Shown here: positions 5,103 through 32,000 of the stretch, piece after piece
Layout of the letters: each line of letters opens with the position of its first letter
Numbering within the stretch: position 1 is the stretch's first letter
Assembly: GCF_001306055.1 (NCBI RefSeq)
Contig: NZ_LGHJ01000006.1
Coordinates: 30,001-62,000, forward strand
Source of the DNA: Bellilinea caldifistulae
GTDB taxonomy: Bacteria; Chloroflexota; Anaerolineae; Anaerolineales; Anaerolineaceae
Reading direction: 5' to 3'
DNA length: 32,000 nucleotides
Position numbers and translations under genes: made by a program
The notes under the pieces: model-generated
Seen by the model: the letters and a program-made list of their open reading frames with translations, nothing else
What the model was told of the DNA's origin: nothing
The model's database searches: none

Positions 5103-5110
5103 AATCAACC

Positions 5111-5235
5111 GGCGGTTCGCAATGACATGTCCTTCTTAAGATCACTCCGAACGTAGTGACACTCACCAGTGCAGGAGGTCTCCCGCCATGCTGCCGCCAC
5201 GGCTCTGCGGGAGATTGCCACGCCGCCTGACGGCA
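5111..5235 (+). repeat. Structured intergenic repeat, copy A (complete unit)
   Basis: Aligns almost end to end with 17577-17705. Example: CGCAATGAcATGtCCTTcTTAAgaTCACTCCGAACGTAgTGACACT...CAGTGCAGG...GTCTCCC...GGCTCTGcGGGAGATTGCCACGC. The ends GGCGG-TTC-GCAAT and ATTGC-CAC-GCCGCC are complementary. Confidence 0.8.
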
Positions 5236-5328: not shown

Positions 5329-5337
5329 TGCTATAAT
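5329..5337 (+). promoter_or_regulatory. Extended -10 promoter element TGCTATAAT upstream of dnaE
   Basis: TGCTATAAT at 5329-5337. GAAGGAG Shine-Dalgarno lies before the ATG at 5379. There is no good -35, consistent with an extended -10 promoter. Confidence 0.5.
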
Positions 5338-5378: not shown

Positions 5379-8300
5379 ATGTCTTTCGTCCATCTTCATG
5401 TTCATACGCAGTACTCGCTGCTGGACGGCTTCTCGCATATCAAGAAGCTGGTTGAGCGCGTCAAGCAGATGAACATGCCGGCTGTGGCGATCACGGATCA
5501 CGGCACGATGTACGGGGTGATTGAGTTCTTCAACGCCGCCAAAGCCGCCGGTGTCAAACCGATCATCGGCATGGAAGCCTACCTCGCCCCGCGCGGGATG
5601 CGCGACCGCGACCCCAAACTGGATAAATCCCCCACTCACCTGTTGCTGCTGGCCGAAAACGAAACCGGTTACCGCAATCTGCTCAAAATTGCCAGCGCAG
5701 CCCAGCTGGAGGGCTTTTACTACGCTCCGCGAATTGACCACGAGTTTTTAGCCGCCCATGCCGAGGGGCTGATTGCCACCTCCGGCTGCATGGCAGCCGA
5801 GATACCCCAGTTGATTCTGGAAAAAGGCATTGAAGCCGCCCGCAAACAGGTGGACTGGTATTACGAGGTCTTTGGCAAGGATCGTTTCTTTTTTGAGTTA
5901 CAGCGCCATCAAATCCCCGAGCTGGAAGACATCAACCGCGCCCTGAAAGAGCTTGCCCCGCGCTACCCGGCGCGATTTGTGGCTACCAACGATGTCCATT
6001 ACATTGAACCGGAGGACGCCCGCTATCAGGACATTCTGCTGGCCATCCAGACCGGTTCGCTGATCACCGATAAAAACCGCTTCCGCATGACCGATGACAC
6101 CTACTACCTGCGTACACCTCAGGAAATGGCAGAAATTTTCAAGGAAGTGCCGGAAGCCCTGCACAACACCCTGCTGATTGCCGAACGGGTGAATGTGGAT
6201 CTTTCCAGCAAGGGCTATCACCTGCCGGTGTTCGAGGTGCCGCCCGGCTGTACAGCAGAAACTTACCTGCGCAGCCTGTGCGAAGAAGGTCTGCAGCGTC
6301 GTTATCATCACTCTCCGCTCTATGACAAGGCCCGCGAGCGGCTCGAATATGAACTGAGGGTCATTCATGAGATGGGCTTTGACGCCTACTTCCTGATTGT
6401 GTGGGATTTGTGCCGCCATGCCCGCGAAAAGGGTATCTGGTACAATGCGCGCGGGTCGGCAGCCGGTTCGATCGTCGCTTATACTCTGGAAATCACCAAT
6501 GTCGAACCACTGGCGCACGGTTTGATTTTTGAGCGATTTCTCAACCCCGGGCGCATTTCTATGCCGGATATTGACCTCGACTTTCAGGACGATCAACGCC
6601 CGCAGATGCTGGAATACTGCGCCCGCAAGTACGGGGATGACCGCGTGGCGCAAATCATCACCTTTGGCACGCTGGGGGCGCGGGCTGCGGTGCGCGATGT
6701 CGGACGGGTAATGGATATTCCCCTCACGGAAGTCGACCGGGTCAGCAAGTTGATTCCCAATGTGCCCGGAAAGCCGGTCACCATCCGCGAGGCATTGGAA
6801 CAGGTTCCCGAGCTGAAAGCCCTCTACGACAGCACGCCCTACCTGAAAGAACTGATTGACACCGCTGCCCACATGGAGGGCTCTATTCGCAACGCCGGCA
6901 CCCACGCCGCCGGTGTGATCATCACCGACAAGCCGATCATCGAGTACATCCCGCTGCACCGCCCAACCAGCGGCTCGGAAGAGTCACCCATCAAGACCGT
7001 CACCCAGTTTGAAATGTCCGTTGTCGAGTCGCTGGGGCTGCTCAAGGTGGACTTTTTGGGGCTGGCGACCCTGACGATCATGCAGCGTGCCTGTGACCTG
7101 ATCGAAAAGCGCCACGGGGTCAAGTACACCCTGGAAAACATTCCGATGGACGACCCCTACACCTTCGAGTTTCTCAGCCAGGGACACACCGCGGGTGTCT
7201 TTCAACTGGAAGGCACGGGCATGACCCGTTACCTGACCCAGATGAAGCCACGCAATGTGGATAATGTGATCGCCATGGTGGCGCTTTACCGTCCTGGCCC
7301 GCTGGAATTCATCCCGCGCTACATTGCCCGCATGCATGGGGAGGAAGAAGTCACCTACCGCCATCCAGCCATGAAGCCGATCTTCGAGGATACCTACGGC
7401 ATCCCCATTTATCAGGAACAGATCATGCGGGCTGCGGTGGAACTGGCGGGTTACACCCTGTCCGAATCGGATGACCTGCGCAAGGCGATTGCCAAAAAAC
7501 AGAAAGATAAACTGGAAAAGCACCGCGAAAAGTTTATCAAAGGCGCAACCCAGCGCGGCATCCCGCAGGAAACCGCCGCCCAGATTTTCGAGGATTGGGA
7601 AGAGTTTGCGCGTTATGGGTTCAATAAAAGCCATGCCGCCGATTACGGCATCATCGCCGTTCAAACCGCCTTCCTGAAGGCTCACTACCCGGTCGAGTAC
7701 ATGACCGCCCTGCTTTCGGCTTCCAAGAACGATACCGCCAAAGTGGCCTTTTATGTGGCGGACTGCCGCAACATGGGCATTGATGTCCTGCCACCGGACA
7801 TCAACGCTTCCGGTTACGATTTCACTATTGAAGATCGGCCCGGGCAGAAACCGGCCATCCGCTTTGGGTTGGGGGCGGTCAAGAATGTTGGGCAGGCACC
7901 CGTGGATTTGATTCTGGAGGCCCGCCGCGAGGGACCCTTCCGAGACCTGAATGATTTTGCCCGCCGCGCCGATTTACAAAAAGTGGGCAAGCGCGCCCTC
8001 GAATGTCTGGTGCGGGTGGGCGCGCTGGATGTCTTTGGCCCGCGCATGGCGTTGCTGGAAGCGCTTGACCAGATCATCTCGGTCAGCGCCAGCCACTTCC
8101 GTGCCCTGCACATGGGGCAGATGTCCTTCTTTGGCAGCATTGCCGGTGTGGAAGAAGAGATCATCCTGCCGCAGAGCAGCGCCCTCGACCGCCGCGAACA
8201 GCTGGAGTGGGAGCGTGAACTGATCGGCCTGTATGTTTCGGACCACCCGCTCACGCCCTATTTACCCACCCTGCAGCGTAAGGTCATCTGCTTCAGCGCG

Positions 8301-9272
8301 CAGCTGAGTGAACTGCCCAACAAAGAGCGGGTGGTGGTAGCCGGTATGGTAACCCGTTTCCGCAATCACCAGACCAAGAAGGGCGACTGGATGGGCTTCT
8401 TCACGCTGGAGGACATTCAGGGAACGGTGGATGTGACCGCCTTTCCGCGCGTGTGGGAGCAGTGCGCATCGCTGGTCACACCCGACCGGGTGCTGCTGGT
8501 AGAAGGCCGGCTGGAAAACGAAAATGGTGAGCCGAAGATTCTGGCCGACCGCGTCAGCGAGGTGTTCATTGAATACGAGGAAAACGGCCAGGAAATTGAC
8601 CCGTACCTGTGTTACCTGCCGGATGAAGAAAACGGTCTGCCTGCCGCTTCCATGGGCGAGATTCCCCAGGATGCTACACCTCCCCAAGAAACAACCCCCT
8701 CGCACGTTTCCGAACCACGCCCATCCTACCCGGTTGGGGAGGCAGACGGGGATATACCGCCACCCCCGCCCGATTTTGAGGACGAGTTTTTGTTCAATTC
8801 CCTGCCGGCGGTAAAGGCGAGCAGTAAAGACCAACCGTCTGCCCCGCCTGCTCCGGCTGCGAAGAAGCCAGCCAGCCCTGCAAAACCGGCAGGGGATGGC
8901 GTTGCTGCACCGTCCCAGCCGGCCAATACTGAACCGCCTTTGCCGATGAATGGCGGGCTGCGCTATCTGGTGCCACCGCTCCCGCCGGAGGGCATTCCCT
9001 CCGAAGAAAGCGGCGAAATCCGCATGGTCAAGGTCATCTTACGTTCCAGCGGCGATCGTGAGCGGGATGTGCAACGCTTGAAGCGGGTTTATGGGATTTT
9101 ACGGGCTGCCCCGGGGCGCGACCGCTTCGCCTTTTATGTGTTCGAGGGCAGAAACCGCGTTCTGCTGGAATTTCCCAACGATACCACCGGTATCACCCCT
9201 CACCTGCTCAAAGAATTGACCGAGACGGTTGGCGAGGGGAACGTGATGGTAGAAACCATCCCGATTCAGTAG
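5379..9272 (+). CDS. dnaE: DNA polymerase III alpha subunit with a non-canonical C-terminal extension
   Basis: 1297 aa. N-terminal PHP domain (FVHLHVHTQYSLLDG), polymerase core, HhH and OB-fold regions are recognisable. They are followed by a Pro/acidic-rich linker and a small terminal domain. Confidence 0.97.
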   Translation: MSFVHLHVHTQYSLLDGFSHIKKLVERVKQMNMPAVAITDHGTMYGVIEFFNAAKAAGVKPIIGMEAYLAPRGMRDRDPKLDKSPTHLLLLAENETGYRNLLKIASAAQLEGFYYAPRIDHEFLAAHAEGLIATSGCMAAEIPQLILEKGIEAARKQVDWYYEVFGKDRFFFELQRHQIPELEDINRALKELAPRYPARFVATNDVHYIEPEDARYQDILLAIQTGSLITDKNRFRMTDDTYYLRTPQEMAEIFKEVPEALHNTLLIAERVNVDLSSKGYHLPVFEVPPGCTAETYLRSLCEEGLQRRYHHSPLYDKARERLEYELRVIHEMGFDAYFLIVWDLCRHAREKGIWYNARGSAAGSIVAYTLEITNVEPLAHGLIFERFLNPGRISMPDIDLDFQDDQRPQMLEYCARKYGDDRVAQIITFGTLGARAAVRDVGRVMDIPLTEVDRVSKLIPNVPGKPVTIREALEQVPELKALYDSTPYLKELIDTAAHMEGSIRNAGTHAAGVIITDKPIIEYIPLHRPTSGSEESPIKTVTQFEMSVVESLGLLKVDFLGLATLTIMQRACDLIEKRHGVKYTLENIPMDDPYTFEFLSQGHTAGVFQLEGTGMTRYLTQMKPRNVDNVIAMVALYRPGPLEFIPRYIARMHGEEEVTYRHPAMKPIFEDTYGIPIYQEQIMRAAVELAGYTLSESDDLRKAIAKKQKDKLEKHREKFIKGATQRGIPQETAAQIFEDWEEFARYGFNKSHAADYGIIAVQTAFLKAHYPVEYMTALLSASKNDTAKVAFYVADCRNMGIDVLPPDINASGYDFTIEDRPGQKPAIRFGLGAVKNVGQAPVDLILEARREGPFRDLNDFARRADLQKVGKRALECLVRVGALDVFGPRMALLEALDQIISVSASHFRALHMGQMSFFGSIAGVEEEIILPQSSALDRREQLEWERELIGLYVSDHPLTPYLPTLQRKVICFSAQLSELPNKERVVVAGMVTRFRNHQTKKGDWMGFFTLEDIQGTVDVTAFPRVWEQCASLVTPDRVLLVEGRLENENGEPKILADRVSEVFIEYEENGQEIDPYLCYLPDEENGLPAASMGEIPQDATPPQETTPSHVSEPRPSYPVGEADGDIPPPPPDFEDEFLFNSLPAVKASSKDQPSAPPAPAAKKPASPAKPAGDGVAAPSQPANTEPPLPMNGGLRYLVPPLPPEGIPSEESGEIRMVKVILRSSGDRERDVQRLKRVYGILRAAPGRDRFAFYVFEGRNRVLLEFPNDTTGITPHLLKELTETVGEGNVMVETIPIQ

Positions 9273-15604: not shown

Positions 15605-15634
15605 TTAAGCGGAAAACACGAATATGACAGTTCA

Positions 15635-15673
15635 GCAGACCGGCGCAGGAATGACGCCGGTCTGCTTTTGTTG
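15635..15673 (+). terminator. Rho-independent terminator downstream of yceI
   Basis: GCAGACCGGCG (15635-15645) pairs perfectly with CGCCGGTCTGC (15655-15665) across a 9-nt loop. TTTTGTTG follows. Confidence 0.75.
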
Positions 15674-15727
15674 TGTGACCTCAGGTCGGGATAAGGAATT
15701 TCAACGATTTTGAGGAGCCGTTGCTGG

Positions 15728-15813
15728 CCGTGCGGCAATCTCCCCCAGAGCCGTTGGGGAGGCGGGTGAATGAGATGTGACATTTCGTCCCGGCACAAAT
15801 GATCATTCTGCCG
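15728..15813 (-). repeat. Structured intergenic repeat, copy D (inverted, divergent)
   Basis: GGCAATCTCCCCCAGAGCCGTTGGGGAGGCGGG (15734-15766) is the reverse complement of the most conserved module of copies A and B (CCCGCCTCCCCAAYGGCTCTGGGGGAGATTGCC). The remainder shows weaker similarity (AATGATCATT versus AATGACATG). Confidence 0.65.
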
Positions 15814-17576: not shown

Positions 17577-17705
17577 GCCACGCCGCCTGACGGCGGCTCG
17601 CAATGAAATGCCCTTTTTAACGTCACTCCGAACGTATTGACACTTTGCAGTGCAGGGGAGTCTCCCACCCCGCCTCCCCAATGGCTCTGGGGGAGATTGC
17701 CACGC
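17577..17705 (+). repeat. Structured intergenic repeat, copy B (junction hairpin plus complete unit)
   Basis: GCCACGCCGCCTGACGGCGGCTCGCAATGAAATGCCC...GTCACTCCGAACGTATTGACACT...CAGTGCAGGGGAGTCTCCCACCCCGCCTCCCCAATGGCTCTGGGGGAGATTGCCACGC. Highly similar to 5111-5235. Confidence 0.8.
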
Positions 17706-30406: not shown

Positions 30407-30420
30407 GGCGGGTAGAAAAC

Positions 30421-30545
30421 CGCCCCTCCCGCAAGGCCCCCACCTGCACTGCGCTCGACATGACGTGAACAAGGCCATGTCATTGTGGGCCGCCGTCAGG
30501 CGGCGTGGCAATCCTCCACTACGCCGATGGGGAGGCAGGGCGGGG
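30421..30545 (-). repeat. Structured intergenic repeat, copy C (inverted and circularly permuted)
   Basis: The reverse complement reads CCTCCCCATCGGCGTAGTGGAGGATTGCCACGCCGCCTGACGGCGGCCCACAATGACATGGCC...CAGTGCAGG. This is the 3' module, then the junction hairpin, then the 5' module of the family. Confidence 0.7.
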
Positions 30546-30578
30546 AAACAATTTTCTCTACCCTAAAATCCCCGAATT

Positions 30579-30609
30579 TTGAACGCTCATCCCGCCAAGG
30601 TGCTATAAT
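30579..30609 (+). promoter_or_regulatory. Promoter TTGAAC-19-(TGC)TATAAT for the lactate permease gene
   Basis: Extended -10 TGCTATAAT at 30601-30609, only 14 nt before ATG 30624. No Shine-Dalgarno, which implies a leader of only about 8 nt. Confidence 0.5.
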
Positions 30610-30623
30610 CGGCTGCGTTACCC

Positions 30624-32000
30624 ATGGAACTGAACCTGTTCACCTGGACCCTGGCGCTGCTGCCGGTGCTGGTCGTCTTGATTCTGATGCTGGGCTTCAA
30701 GTGGGGTGGCAGTCGTGCTGGTGCAGCCGGCTGGGTTACCGCCGTACTGGTTGCCTGGATCTTCTTTGCCGCCGGCCCGCGTTTGATTGCCTACACCCAG
30801 GCCAAAGCAGTCCTGCTCAGTCTGGATGTGTTGTACATCATCTGGACGGCGCTGCTGCTCTACCACACCGCCGATGAAGCCGGCGCTGTGCGGATGATTG
30901 GCGTCAGTCTGCCGCGCCTGACCGCCGACCGCACCATGCAAGGACTGTTGATCGGCTGGCTGTTCGCCTCGTTTTTACAGGGTATGGGCGGTTTCGGTGT
31001 GCCGGTGGCCGTGGCGGCACCGCTGCTGGTTGGACTGGGTTTCAACCCGGTTCAGGCGGTGGTGATGGCGTGTATCGGCCACGGCTGGGCGGTCAATTAC
31101 GGCTCGCTGGCAACCTCCTTCCAAACCCTGATGGCGGTTACCGGCCTGCCCGGCGAACTGCTGGCGCCCGATTCGGCCTGGCTGCTGGGACTTTCGGCGT
31201 ATGCCTGCGGGGCGATTGTGGCACTGGTGGCTGGCGGCTGGCGCGGCCTGCTGCGCAGCCTGCCGGCGGTGATCGTCCTGGGGAGTGTGATGGCGCTCAG
31301 CCAGTACGGACTGGCGGTCAACGGGCTGTGGAATCTGGGCGCTACCGGCAGCGCCATGCTGGGACTGCTGGTCGGAATGGGTTTATGCCGCCTGCCCCTC
31401 TACCGCGGCAACCCGCAATCCACGCCGGCAGCCGATTTCGCTCACCTGAACGGCGGGGACGGGAAACCCCGTTCGCTGAAAATTTCGCTCTCGGCTTACG
31501 CCATTCTGGTGGTGCTGACTTTTGCGATCAACCTCATCCAGCCGCTCAACGCCTTCCTCGACCAGATTCAACTGAACCTCAACTTTCCGGAATTGCGCAC
31601 TGGCCTGGGATGGGTCACTCCCGCCGGGCCGGGACGCTCCATCAGCCTGTTTGGACATACCGGCTCCATTCTCCTGTATGCCTCGCTGATTTCCTACTTC
31701 ATCTACCGGCGGGCGGGTTATTACCGGCCGGGTGCAGCCGCCAGAATTGGCGAAAAGACCGTGAAGGGAGCGGTCAATTCCAGCTTGGGTATTCTGGCAA
31801 TGGTGGGCATGGCGGTGATCATGTCACATGCTGGCATGACCAACCTGCTGGCGCTGGGCATGAGCCGCAGTTTTGGCGCTGCCGCCTACCCGCTGATTGC
31901 GCCGTTCATTGGGGGGTTGGGAGCCTTCATCACCGGCAGCAACAACAATTCCAATGTGTTGTTTGCCGTGCTGCAAATGCGCACTGCCGAACTCCTCGCA
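30624..32000 (+). CDS. L-lactate/glycolate permease (LctP family); C-terminus cut by the window edge
   Basis: Absent from the ORF track because it has no stop in the window. Translation reads MELNLFTWTLALLPVLVVLILMLGFKWGG...LLIGWLFASFLQGMGGFGVPVAVAAPLLVGLGFNP...GAFITGSNNNSNVLF, matching conserved LctP blocks. Confidence 0.9.
   Translation, partial: MELNLFTWTLALLPVLVVLILMLGFKWGGSRAGAAGWVTAVLVAWIFFAAGPRLIAYTQAKAVLLSLDVLYIIWTALLLYHTADEAGAVRMIGVSLPRLTADRTMQGLLIGWLFASFLQGMGGFGVPVAVAAPLLVGLGFNPVQAVVMACIGHGWAVNYGSLATSFQTLMAVTGLPGELLAPDSAWLLGLSAYACGAIVALVAGGWRGLLRSLPAVIVLGSVMALSQYGLAVNGLWNLGATGSAMLGLLVGMGLCRLPLYRGNPQSTPAADFAHLNGGDGKPRSLKISLSAYAILVVLTFAINLIQPLNAFLDQIQLNLNFPELRTGLGWVTPAGPGRSISLFGHTGSILLYASLISYFIYRRAGYYRPGAAARIGEKTVKGAVNSSLGILAMVGMAVIMSHAGMTNLLALGMSRSFGAAAYPLIAPFIGGLGAFITGSNNNSNVLFAVLQMRTAELLA

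Follow-up and report, generated by a model that had tools for sequence, protein, structure and literature searches.

Intergenic repeats of Bellilinea caldifistulae as probable fragments of REP/BIME-like clusters of a short palindrome

Background

The BIMEs of E. coli are mosaics of Y and Z REPs that are connected by S and L linkers. To our knowledge, REP-type repeats are well studied in Proteobacteria and barely in Chloroflexota.

Two REP superfamilies are distinguished by the tags GTAG and CGTC (Di Nocera, De Gregorio and Rocco 2013, BMC Genomics 14:522, PMC3733652); the organisation of BIMEs is also summarised there and elsewhere (PMC3733652, PMC11893778). The CGTC-tagged REPs, which include dRS3 of Neisseria and RPE-4/6 of Rickettsia, consist of an unpaired CGTC or TGTC (or CCTC) head, a stem of 8-9 bp starting with A-T, a loop of 4-5 nt and a CCA tail. 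They mostly form head-to-head dimers, have no dedicated transposase and were reported from five phyla, Chloroflexi not being among them (PMC3733652).

A second related system are the NTS repeats of Neisseria and the more general SRM. The nuclease SsnA, a GIY-YIG protein of 94 aa, binds and cuts the NTS CGTCATTCCCGCGMAVGCGGGAATCYRG only as single-stranded DNA and only on one strand (Chenal et al. 2025, Nat Commun 16:2388, PMC11893778). Its cleavage is governed by the three bases 5' of the palindrome (GTC), the key position for binding is the C that directly follows on the 3' side, and repeats of this kind often lie on both sides of ssn genes (PMC11893778).

Here we analysed a stretch of 32,000 nt from Bellilinea caldifistulae, a member of the Anaerolineaceae (Chloroflexota, Anaerolineae) (in the following: the window). 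An earlier note on this DNA, made from the letters alone, had proposed four copies of a structured intergenic repeat, here named A to D, composed of the three modules M1, M2 and J. Based on our analysis these copies are very probably parts of mosaic clusters of the REP/BIME kind, in which the repeated sequence is a short palindrome that is presumably constrained at the level of DNA.

Results and discussion

Location and gene context of the four copies

Positions in the window correspond to record DF967971.1 (GCA_001050215.2) after addition of 366990. The copies and their parts are listed in Table 1. The copies A, C and D were confirmed as related sequences at about the places given before. A and C could be aligned over 115 nt with 82% identity (E = 1e-23), and D matched C in inverted orientation over 63 nt (81%) and A in inverted orientation as well. 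Copy B is related to the others to a lesser extent: 33 nt were complementary to C at 97%, followed only by a degenerate continuation; just the junction and a degenerate J unit are shared. A profile HMM of the composite unit did not detect copy B.

According to the public gene calls all four copies are intergenic and follow gene 3' ends, as had been proposed, each lying 8 to ~122 nt past a stop codon. They are located upstream of the next promoter; these promoters are conserved and of the TGCTATAAT type. Relative to the flanking genes and to transcription both orientations occur among the copies. In ~180 kb of Bellilinea-related DNA we counted ~7 clusters. Four copies in the window are thus unexceptional, and what had been regarded as a very high density is ordinary for REP families.

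Table 1. Copies A to D in the window, their gene context and their component REPs and spacers
Copy	Feature	Position	Strand	Remarks
A	whole copy	5110..5234		rdgB (stop 5102) upstream, dnaE (start 5379) downstream; genes on +
A	5' half of J-type REP	5110..5126	-	head-first on - strand GTCATTGCGAACCGCCG; kept as GCCATTGCCAGCCGCCGC in L173
A	head-to-head spacer ATGTCCTTCTTAAG, A/T-rich	5127..5140	.	aligns with spacers of C, D, L080 and L090
A	M1-type REP	5141..5184	+	degenerate head ATC, ACTCC...GGAGGT, inner CACT...AGTG insert, tail CTCCC
A	tail-to-tail spacer	5185..5208	.	loop of the M2 hairpin of the earlier note; conserved across copies
A	J-type REP: tail, 3' arm and loop	5209..5234	-	- strand GCCGTCAGGCGGCGTGGCAATCTCCC; without 5' arm and head
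B	whole copy, decayed and partial	~15714..15813		yceI with its own terminator upstream, 66-aa gene downstream; genes on +
B	degenerate J-type REP	15714..15744	+	end GCAATCTCCC; sequence
B	tail-to-tail spacer	15745..15767	.	with adjacent J tail GGCAATCTCCC (15734-15766, 33 nt) 97% complementary to C
B	putative remnant of M1-type REP, decayed (GTCAC...ATCTC), with internal deletion	15768..15813	-	from comparison with copy C sequence
C	whole copy	17577..17705		dnaN upstream, alpha/beta hydrolase gene downstream; genes on -
C	J-type REP without tail	17577..17607	-	- strand reads TTCATTGCGAGCCGCCGTCAGGCGGCGTGGC
C	head-to-head spacer ATGCCCTTTTTAA	17608..17620	.	array alignment
C	M1-type REP CGTC-ACTCC-GAAC...-GGAGT-CTCCC	17621..17666	+	compensated outer stem
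C	tail-to-tail spacer	17667..17690	.	array alignment
C	further J-type REP, truncated: tail and start of 3' arm	17691..17705	-	GGGAGATTGCCACGC; sequence
D	whole copy	30420..30548		544-aa R3H/AAA gene (stop 30406) upstream, lctP downstream; genes on +
D	M1-type REP, then partly deleted second junction	30420..30465	-	- strand CGTCATGTCGAGCGCAGTGCAGG...; sequence
D	head-to-head spacer	30466..30477	.	array alignment
D	J-type REP TGTC-ATTGT-GGG-CCGCC-GTCA-GGCGG-CGTG-GCAAT-CCTCC	30478..30517	+	only complete one in the window
D	tail-to-tail spacer and remnant tail of a lost M1-type REP	30518..30548	.	sequence

Structure of the basic unit and of the arrays

The repeated entity is most likely a short DNA palindrome and not a structured RNA of 120 nt. 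The basic unit is ~40 nt in size. Read with the head first, it consists of an unpaired YGTC head, the first arm of a 5-bp outer stem (ATTGC/GCAAT or compensated variants), GAG(C), an inner part formed by a variable hairpin or a GAGCGAAGCGA-type core, the matching outer arm and the tail CTCC(C). Between the inner hairpin and the GCAAT arm the alignment of units contained CG(T/A)(G/A). The head was CGTC or TGTC in most units; within the window TGTC was found in D and CGTC in the M1 unit of C, the remaining heads being degenerate. Among the units of the viral set GTC was preceded by T in 108 of 142 cases and by C in 24.

The J module represents the basic unit in one orientation and M1 a second type of unit on the opposite strand, often expanded or decayed. 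An intact short form of M1 (CGTCATTCCGAGCGAAGCGAGGAATCTCCC) was present in metagenome contig L090, which identifies M1 as an inverted REP. Most copies of M1 carried an insertion of 20-45 nt (CACT...AGTGCAGG) ahead of the 3' arm. M2 is a tail-to-tail junction composed of AATCTCCC, a spacer and GGGAGATT. Its stem is a built-in complementarity, since the tails of two inverted REPs face each other.

In arrays, units of the J and M1 type alternate in opposite orientations. A scan with the J hairpin revealed strictly alternating tandem arrays in the metagenome contigs L080 and L090, and further arrays were found in L170 and L172. Head-to-head pairs were present in every array. The conserved head-to-head spacer is A/T-rich and 12-15 nt (~14) long, and the tail-to-tail spacer, also conserved, measures ~23 nt. 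The period was mostly ~106-125 nt, with 177 nt in L080 and 185 nt in L170.

When the periods of L080 and L090 were aligned with the window copies, each copy covered about one period in a different phase. The different phases of an alternating array are the reason why the modules look permuted among the copies. The earlier view of a unit with three modules and with terminal inverted repeats as its closure does not hold, and phases of an array of alternating ~40-nt palindromes take its place. Likewise, the J hairpin ATTGC...GCAAT in the form in which it had been written was intact in none of the window copies: C is devoid of the 5' ATTGC, D carries ACAAT, and in A the parts are separated. The intact hairpin occurred only in relatives.

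The M2 stems read CTCCCC/GGGGAG in B and C and CCTCC/GGAGG in D; the earlier note was right for B and had interchanged C and D. The compensatory changes that it saw in these stems largely reflect the facing tails, but hairpins elsewhere in the units are indeed maintained by compensatory change.

A circular intermediate integrating by microhomology was also considered, as it would explain permuted copies of roughly unit length. We set it aside because D is longer than one period and because the phases have a simpler explanation in arrays whose ends are arbitrary.

Covariation and folding

Pairing is under selection in both stems. For the outer stem, units of Bellilinea-related loci were picked by head, GAG and tail only, without use of complementarity. 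A perfect 5-bp stem was present in 17 of these 27 units. On average 3.85 of the 5 positions paired, compared with 2.91 after the arms had been exchanged at random between copies; the highest mean in 2000 such permutations was 3.52. Seven perfect pairings occurred in Bellilinea: ATTGC/GCAAT, ATTCC/GGAAT, ACTCC/GGAGT, ACCCC/GGGGT, ACCGC/GCGGT, ATCGC/GCGAT and ATGTC/GACAT. The third of these belongs to the M1 unit of window copy C, which pairs at 5/5 positions and shows an exchange of T-A by C-G relative to ATTCC/GGAAT.

For the inner stem, we used 271 instances of the fixed frame GTCATTGCGAG...GCAATC, which came mostly from phage contigs and enclosed 157 distinct inner sequences. Inner sequences of at least 13 nt folded more favourably than shuffled versions of themselves, with a mean z of -1.9. 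In 14 units of equal length both sides had changed in 5 of 7 inner pairs, and the covariation score was 0.413 in comparison with 0.097 after shuffling (0/500 as high) and at most 0.124 with slid partners. Little inner pairing and weak folds were found in units of the L012/L172 type and in short GAGCGAAGCGA-type units.

Only a single one of 156 paired cells in the inner stem was G-U. The near-absence of such pairs agrees better with a constraint that acts on DNA, or on both strands, than with one that acts on only one strand of RNA. The permutations of the outer stem and the shuffles of the inner stem both speak for pairing. The idea of the earlier note of a dispersed family whose hairpins are maintained by compensatory change holds, and single-stranded DNA, which was offered there as one option, is a sensible choice.

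At the level of whole copies the support for folding was modest, with RNA folds exceeding shuffles at z = -1.1 to -2.6. When folded as DNA, the J unit of D, which is the only complete one in the window, formed both the outer and the inner stem, with -9.5 kcal/mol and z = -2.2. For copy A a closing helix of ATTGC with GCAAT had been assumed; the predicted long-range helix instead pairs CGGC with GCCG, in a fold of z = -1.1.

These data also bear on the alternative, proposed in part by the earlier note, of a structured RNA that acts in cis from 3' untranslated regions, be it a stabiliser, a terminator or a regulator, and in which selection would act on the RNA fold. The position of every copy between a stop codon and the next promoter, the covarying stems and the modest advantage of the whole-copy folds would all suit such an RNA. 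In addition, the J-type REP of copy C forms a GC hairpin followed by a T-rich run on the dnaN-sense strand, with terminator-like matches at 17595-17572 of the - strand. However, such a terminator-like tail was found in only one of the four copies, and the copies lie in both orientations with regard to transcription. Modules that are permuted or truncated, gains and losses among close relatives, and the scarcity of G-U pairs speak against an RNA, and so does the strong conservation of the unpaired head and tail across phyla and phages; a match in Rfam is lacking as well. We consider this explanation quite unlikely and retain a palindrome that is constrained as DNA.

Turnover between relatives

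The clusters differed even between closely related sequences. In L173, whose dnaN is 94% identical, the spacer between rdgB and dnaE lacks 108-111 nt of copy A. The left half-REP of A (5110-5126) is kept there; the break falls exactly at the head of this unit, and the adjoining head-to-head spacer forms the left edge of the missing segment. Copy A is consequently no complete unit, contrary to the previous description, as its left 17 nt persist without the remainder. In L148, a closer strain, slippage had removed 11 nt from the tail-to-tail spacer of A.

Copy D and lctP are both absent from L177, which carries an ortholog of the 544-aa gene with 96% identity. The difference comprises 1.9 kb and begins directly after the stop-proximal hairpin. 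In L172 (dnaN 97% identical) dnaN is followed by another, larger array with ACCGC/GCGGT stems, and the downstream gene differs. In strains with 98% DNA identity the copies B and C were retained in place, and in relatives with 82-88% identity the synteny at dnaN was lost. The gains and losses among close relatives indicate that the clusters are labile and coincide with breakpoints of indels and synteny.

Presence and absence of 108-111 nt in the rdgB-dnaE spacer, together with a size of ~125 nt and the inverted-repeat-like ends of copy A, resembles a classical MITE, that is, a deletion derivative of an IS with terminal inverted repeats which is inserted by a DDE transposase and creates target-site duplications. 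Following the proposal to look for such duplications and for empty sites, we saw no duplication at the presence/absence site of copy A and no element bounded by terminal inverted repeats with such duplications. The "empty" site in L173 keeps half a REP. Moreover, the copies are circular permutations with no common ends and form tandem arrays, and a parent IS did not turn up. Phage and plasmid records gave no match in blastn. A MITE is therefore highly unlikely, and the presence/absence pattern agrees better with parts of palindrome clusters being gained and lost.

Wider distribution

The frame is carried by Bellilinea-related loci, by the metagenome arrays and by at least 120 viral stretches. 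With the M2 core, a scan of 185,579 species genomes yielded only two real other loci, both in Bellilinea MAGs; the window's own genome was not returned, and most matches were due to chance in coding DNA encoding ALREIA. The metagenome scan with the J hairpin gave ~10 true loci among the matches listed, next to many chance matches. Canonical relatives were encountered by chance in unrelated loci, namely CGTCATTCCCGCGAAAGCGGGAATC in L065 and CGTCATTGCGAGCGAAGCGAAGCAATCC in L074.

In IMG/VR at least 120 stretches of viral contigs contained the frame, where we estimate that only a few would be expected by chance. The genes adjoining the viral units encode portal, terminase and capsid or major head proteins. 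Frequently, one phage carried several units with differing inner stems in successive intergenic gaps.

The Rfam scan, Chloroflexi-1 included, matched no family. No hit in the window reached the gathering score, and A, B and C were free of any overlap at E up to 10; Hairpin-meta1 overlapped D at chance level (E = 0.74, 18.7 bits in comparison with a gathering score of 40). A description of the element was absent from the literature searched. Sequence strings returned primer coincidences only, with the exception of the Ssn paper, which was found via a Neisseria-type string. The statement that the element cannot be assigned to a named family is correct with regard to Rfam, but the element resembles both the CGTC-tagged REPs (PMC3733652) and the NTS/SRM repeats (PMC11893778), neither of them being a clean match. 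Most likely this type of palindrome is undescribed and represents a new structural variant of REP/BIME close to the CGTC/NTS repeats.

Candidate partner proteins

We also looked for genes that recur with the units, considering ORFs at a distance of up to 400 nt as well as those enclosed by inverted pairs of units. The recurrent genes were phage structural genes only, and a recurring transposase gene was not found beside units in 2 Mb of loci.

These results are relevant to a REPIN-type element, mobilised by a RAYT (Y1, IS200/IS605-like) that is encoded elsewhere, with inverted REP pairs being cut and pasted as a long hairpin. REP-BIME-RAYT systems are established (PMC3733652). The inverted doublets with short spacers, in which the partners are nearly complementary (CTCGCAATGAC and GTCATTCCGAG), would be suitable substrates, and the turnover of clusters among relatives would be in agreement as well. 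On the other hand, the head is YGTC and not the GTAG typical of RAYT-associated REPs, and tyrosine transposases flanked by CGTC-type REPs were not found by Di Nocera et al. (PMC3733652). With no Y1 domain in the gene calls around the window or beside arrays and no recurrent transposase gene in the 2 Mb of loci, we regard a RAYT as unlikely.

For relatives of Ssn a GIY-YIG query was used, which proved valid by 78-82% identity to thousands of 95-aa proteins. Neither a GIY-YIG/Ssn-like gene, searched for by regex and tblastn, nor a gene for another candidate enzyme was found in 1.1 Mb of genomic and metagenomic loci and 1.05 Mb of viral loci with REPs. The published association of gene and repeat was reproduced in three places, where inverted CGTC units lie on both sides of an Ssn-like gene: L174, which is a MAG of the Dehalococcoidales, the integrative element L175/L176 and the viral contig L299. 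A protein-pattern search for Ssn relatives in viral contigs gave two loci, and these had canonical SRM flanks and not the Bellilinea frame.

Proposed mechanism

Taken together, we favour REP/BIME-like clusters which act at the DNA level and in which a hairpin of single-stranded DNA is read by a strand-specific protein, perhaps of the Ssn type; on balance this overall reading is likely. While DNA is replicated, repaired or taken up, the unit would extrude as a hairpin of one strand, and its invariant head, GAG and tail could then be recognised by a protein with specificity for sequence and strand. Among possible partners a small, Ssn-type GIY-YIG nuclease that acts on single strands, or a functional analogue, would be the likeliest kind. 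The determinants mapped in Neisseria (GTC 5', C 3') coincide with invariant positions here, where GTC, the outer stem and the C after GCAAT are invariant. That the partner is an Ssn-type nuclease in the strict sense is possible, yet rather doubtful.

Cuts next to heads, combined with recombination between units, may build and break arrays and might thereby cause deletions, gene-sized indels and hot spots of rearrangement. When transcribed, the hairpins lie in 3' untranslated regions and may have a secondary role in the stabilisation or termination of transcripts; for dnaN, copy C points to such a role.

More speculatively still, the frame YGTC-ATTGC-GAG-(hypervariable hairpin)-CGWR-GCAAT-CTCC could be a recognition site of an ssDNA enzyme, be it an Ssn-like GIY-YIG nuclease or another protein, outside the SRM definition and common to Chloroflexota, other bacteria and phages. 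The protein would then read the invariant frame, and the hypervariable inner stem might serve as a specificity or address code. Cleavage at the head side might drive the growth of arrays, cause deletions and allow accessory genes, lctP for instance, to be captured, and the sites, of which a phage might carry dozens, might be targets or decoys. We put this forward as a tentative and somewhat improbable extension.

The frame would be missed by both published censuses, that of the CGTC REPs and that of the SRM, yet environmental bacteria and the genomes of phages commonly contain it. Should a site-specific nuclease for ssDNA have this frame as its target, more Ssn-type enzyme/site pairs would exist than the range known so far, which is of interest for ssDNA tools, and the rearrangement breakpoints around dnaN and lctP in Bellilinea would be explained. 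Annotators would in that case have a means of marking small ORFs that arise spuriously from the repeats. If the frame is selfish DNA and nothing more, the finding is an ordinary one.

Comparison with known repeat systems

The Bellilinea element agrees with the CGTC superfamily in head, orientation and organisation and departs from it in stem architecture and tail. An unpaired (C/T)GTC head directly precedes a palindrome starting with A-T, the unpaired tail is short and C-rich, and the loop of J has 4 nt (GTCA). As in the CGTC REPs, the element is found intergenic between co-directional genes, in inverted dimers or clusters and with no adjoining transposase. However, its stem is bipartite, with 5 bp, a GAG/CGWR internal loop and a hypervariable stem of 5-8 bp in place of a continuous stem of 8-9 bp, and its tail is CTCC(C/T) instead of CCA. 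The CCA tail was found only in the canonical units of L065, L074, L174, L175 and L299. Further differences are the alternation of head-to-head and tail-to-tail junctions with conserved spacers at a period of ~120 nt, and a host phylum, Chloroflexota, outside the five reported.

Like the BIMEs of E. coli and the REPINs of Pseudomonas, the element comprises two REP types that alternate in orientation and are amplified in tandem; its linkers are distinct at head-head and tail-tail junctions, and it is placed after stop codons. It differs from them by an unrelated sequence, a GTC in place of the GTAG head, the insertions of 20-45 nt inside the stem of one REP type, and the fact that no RAYT was identified.

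The third system, NTS/SRM, was compared by means of the published SRM motif, HGTCWYN(0-2)YYVSBRHN(0-5)WNVSBRGN(0-2)RNCYNB (Chenal 2025). None of the 271 units of the Bellilinea-type frame matched, and neither the window nor the arrays of Bellilinea gave a match, so that by this motif the frame falls outside the SRM. The same regex did recover the REPs beside the Ssn-like genes in L174, L175 and L299, and also those in L065. The REPs that flank Ssn-like genes belong to a subtype other than the Bellilinea frame, with a continuous stem of 8-10 bp and a CCA tail. Nevertheless, the element shares with NTS/SRM the occurrence as hairpin repeats between genes, with hundreds in the NTS/SRM case, and an order of head, palindrome and C (CGTC-ATTCC...GGAAT-C in the NTS, YGTC-ATTGC...GCAAT-C in Bellilinea). 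The positions critical for SsnA, GTC upstream and C downstream, are the invariant positions of the Bellilinea frame.

Gene order around copies C and D

The region downstream of dnaN, where repeat copy C lies in the window, differed in composition between the relatives of Bellilinea. In relative GCA_034411135.1 (L169) a CRISPR array with at least 12 copies of the repeat ATACGAATCAATAAATGCCCGTTAGGGCATTAAGAC was located immediately 3' of dnaN and occupied the place held by copy C. In two close relatives (L172 and L173) the gene content 3' of dnaN varied as well. Both carried a pair of genes of 110 and 302 aa, and L172 had two further genes, one for a primase-like zinc-ribbon protein and one for an AAA_25 protein. 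The surroundings of dnaN are a recurrent rearrangement point.

Relative L177, at 96% identity, lacked both copy D and lctP, which encodes a lactate permease; there the acyltransferase gene directly adjoined the 544-aa gene. This difference is a strain-specific indel of 1.9 kb with the repeat as its boundary.

Features next to copies A, B and D

An identical extended -10-like motif, TGCTATAAT, was present at two places, approximately 95 nt downstream of copy A before dnaE and approximately 53 nt downstream of copy D before lctP. Upstream of dnaE it was kept in L173. The dnaE product of the window comprised 1297 aa; the longer orthologs of two relatives (1732-1740 aa) were interrupted by an intein that included a LAGLIDADG domain. 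The sequence 3' of yceI formed a clear intrinsic terminator, in which TTTTGTTG came after GCAGACCGGCG...CGCCGGTCTGC. Since copy B is situated beyond this terminator, it is probably outside the yceI transcript.

Coordinates of the analyzed features
Feature	Locus	Position
TGCTATAAT motif	Window	5329-5337, 30601-30609
dnaE	Window	5379-9272
dnaE, with intein	L170	1-3647
dnaE, with intein	L173	1-3445
yceI terminator	Window	15630-15672
lctP	Window	30624-32000 (to ~32195 in L167)
CRISPR array	L169	11380-12200
Region 3' of dnaN	L172	11634-16630
Region 3' of dnaN	L173	11251-12488
Phage-contig units (example)	L244	144-1066
Phage-contig units (example)	L208	6429-8724
Phage-contig units (example)	L187	7661-8415
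GCCACGCCGCCTGACGGCGGC-hairpin family	L054	2011-2193
GCCACGCCGCCTGACGGCGGC-hairpin family	L087	45-227
GCCACGCCGCCTGACGGCGGC-hairpin family	L079	4527
GCCACGCCGCCTGACGGCGGC-hairpin family	L127	
GCCACGCCGCCTGACGGCGGC-hairpin family	L119	

Related units and nuclease genes elsewhere

Among the IMG/VR matches listed (L179-L298), phage contigs encoding portal, terminase and capsid proteins carried many units with the frame of the present repeat family, GTCATTGCGAG...GCAATCTCC, in consecutive intergenic gaps, and the inner hairpin differed from unit to unit.

Among the listed matches to the GIY-YIG query (P0121-P0240), the 95-aa Ssn-like members spanned many phyla, e.g. Dehalococcoidales, Omnitrophota, Nitrospirae and Zixibacteria. 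They were mostly located on very short contigs of 0.5-3 kb, as expected because multi-copy, repeat-flanked genes break assemblies.

A separate repeat family had exactly the GCCACGCCGCCTGACGGCGGC hairpin in common with the present one, with two copies spaced 165 nt apart in L054 and likewise in L087, but its frame was a different one (CGCCATTT...GGCCGCATTGGTGACGTCATTGACG).
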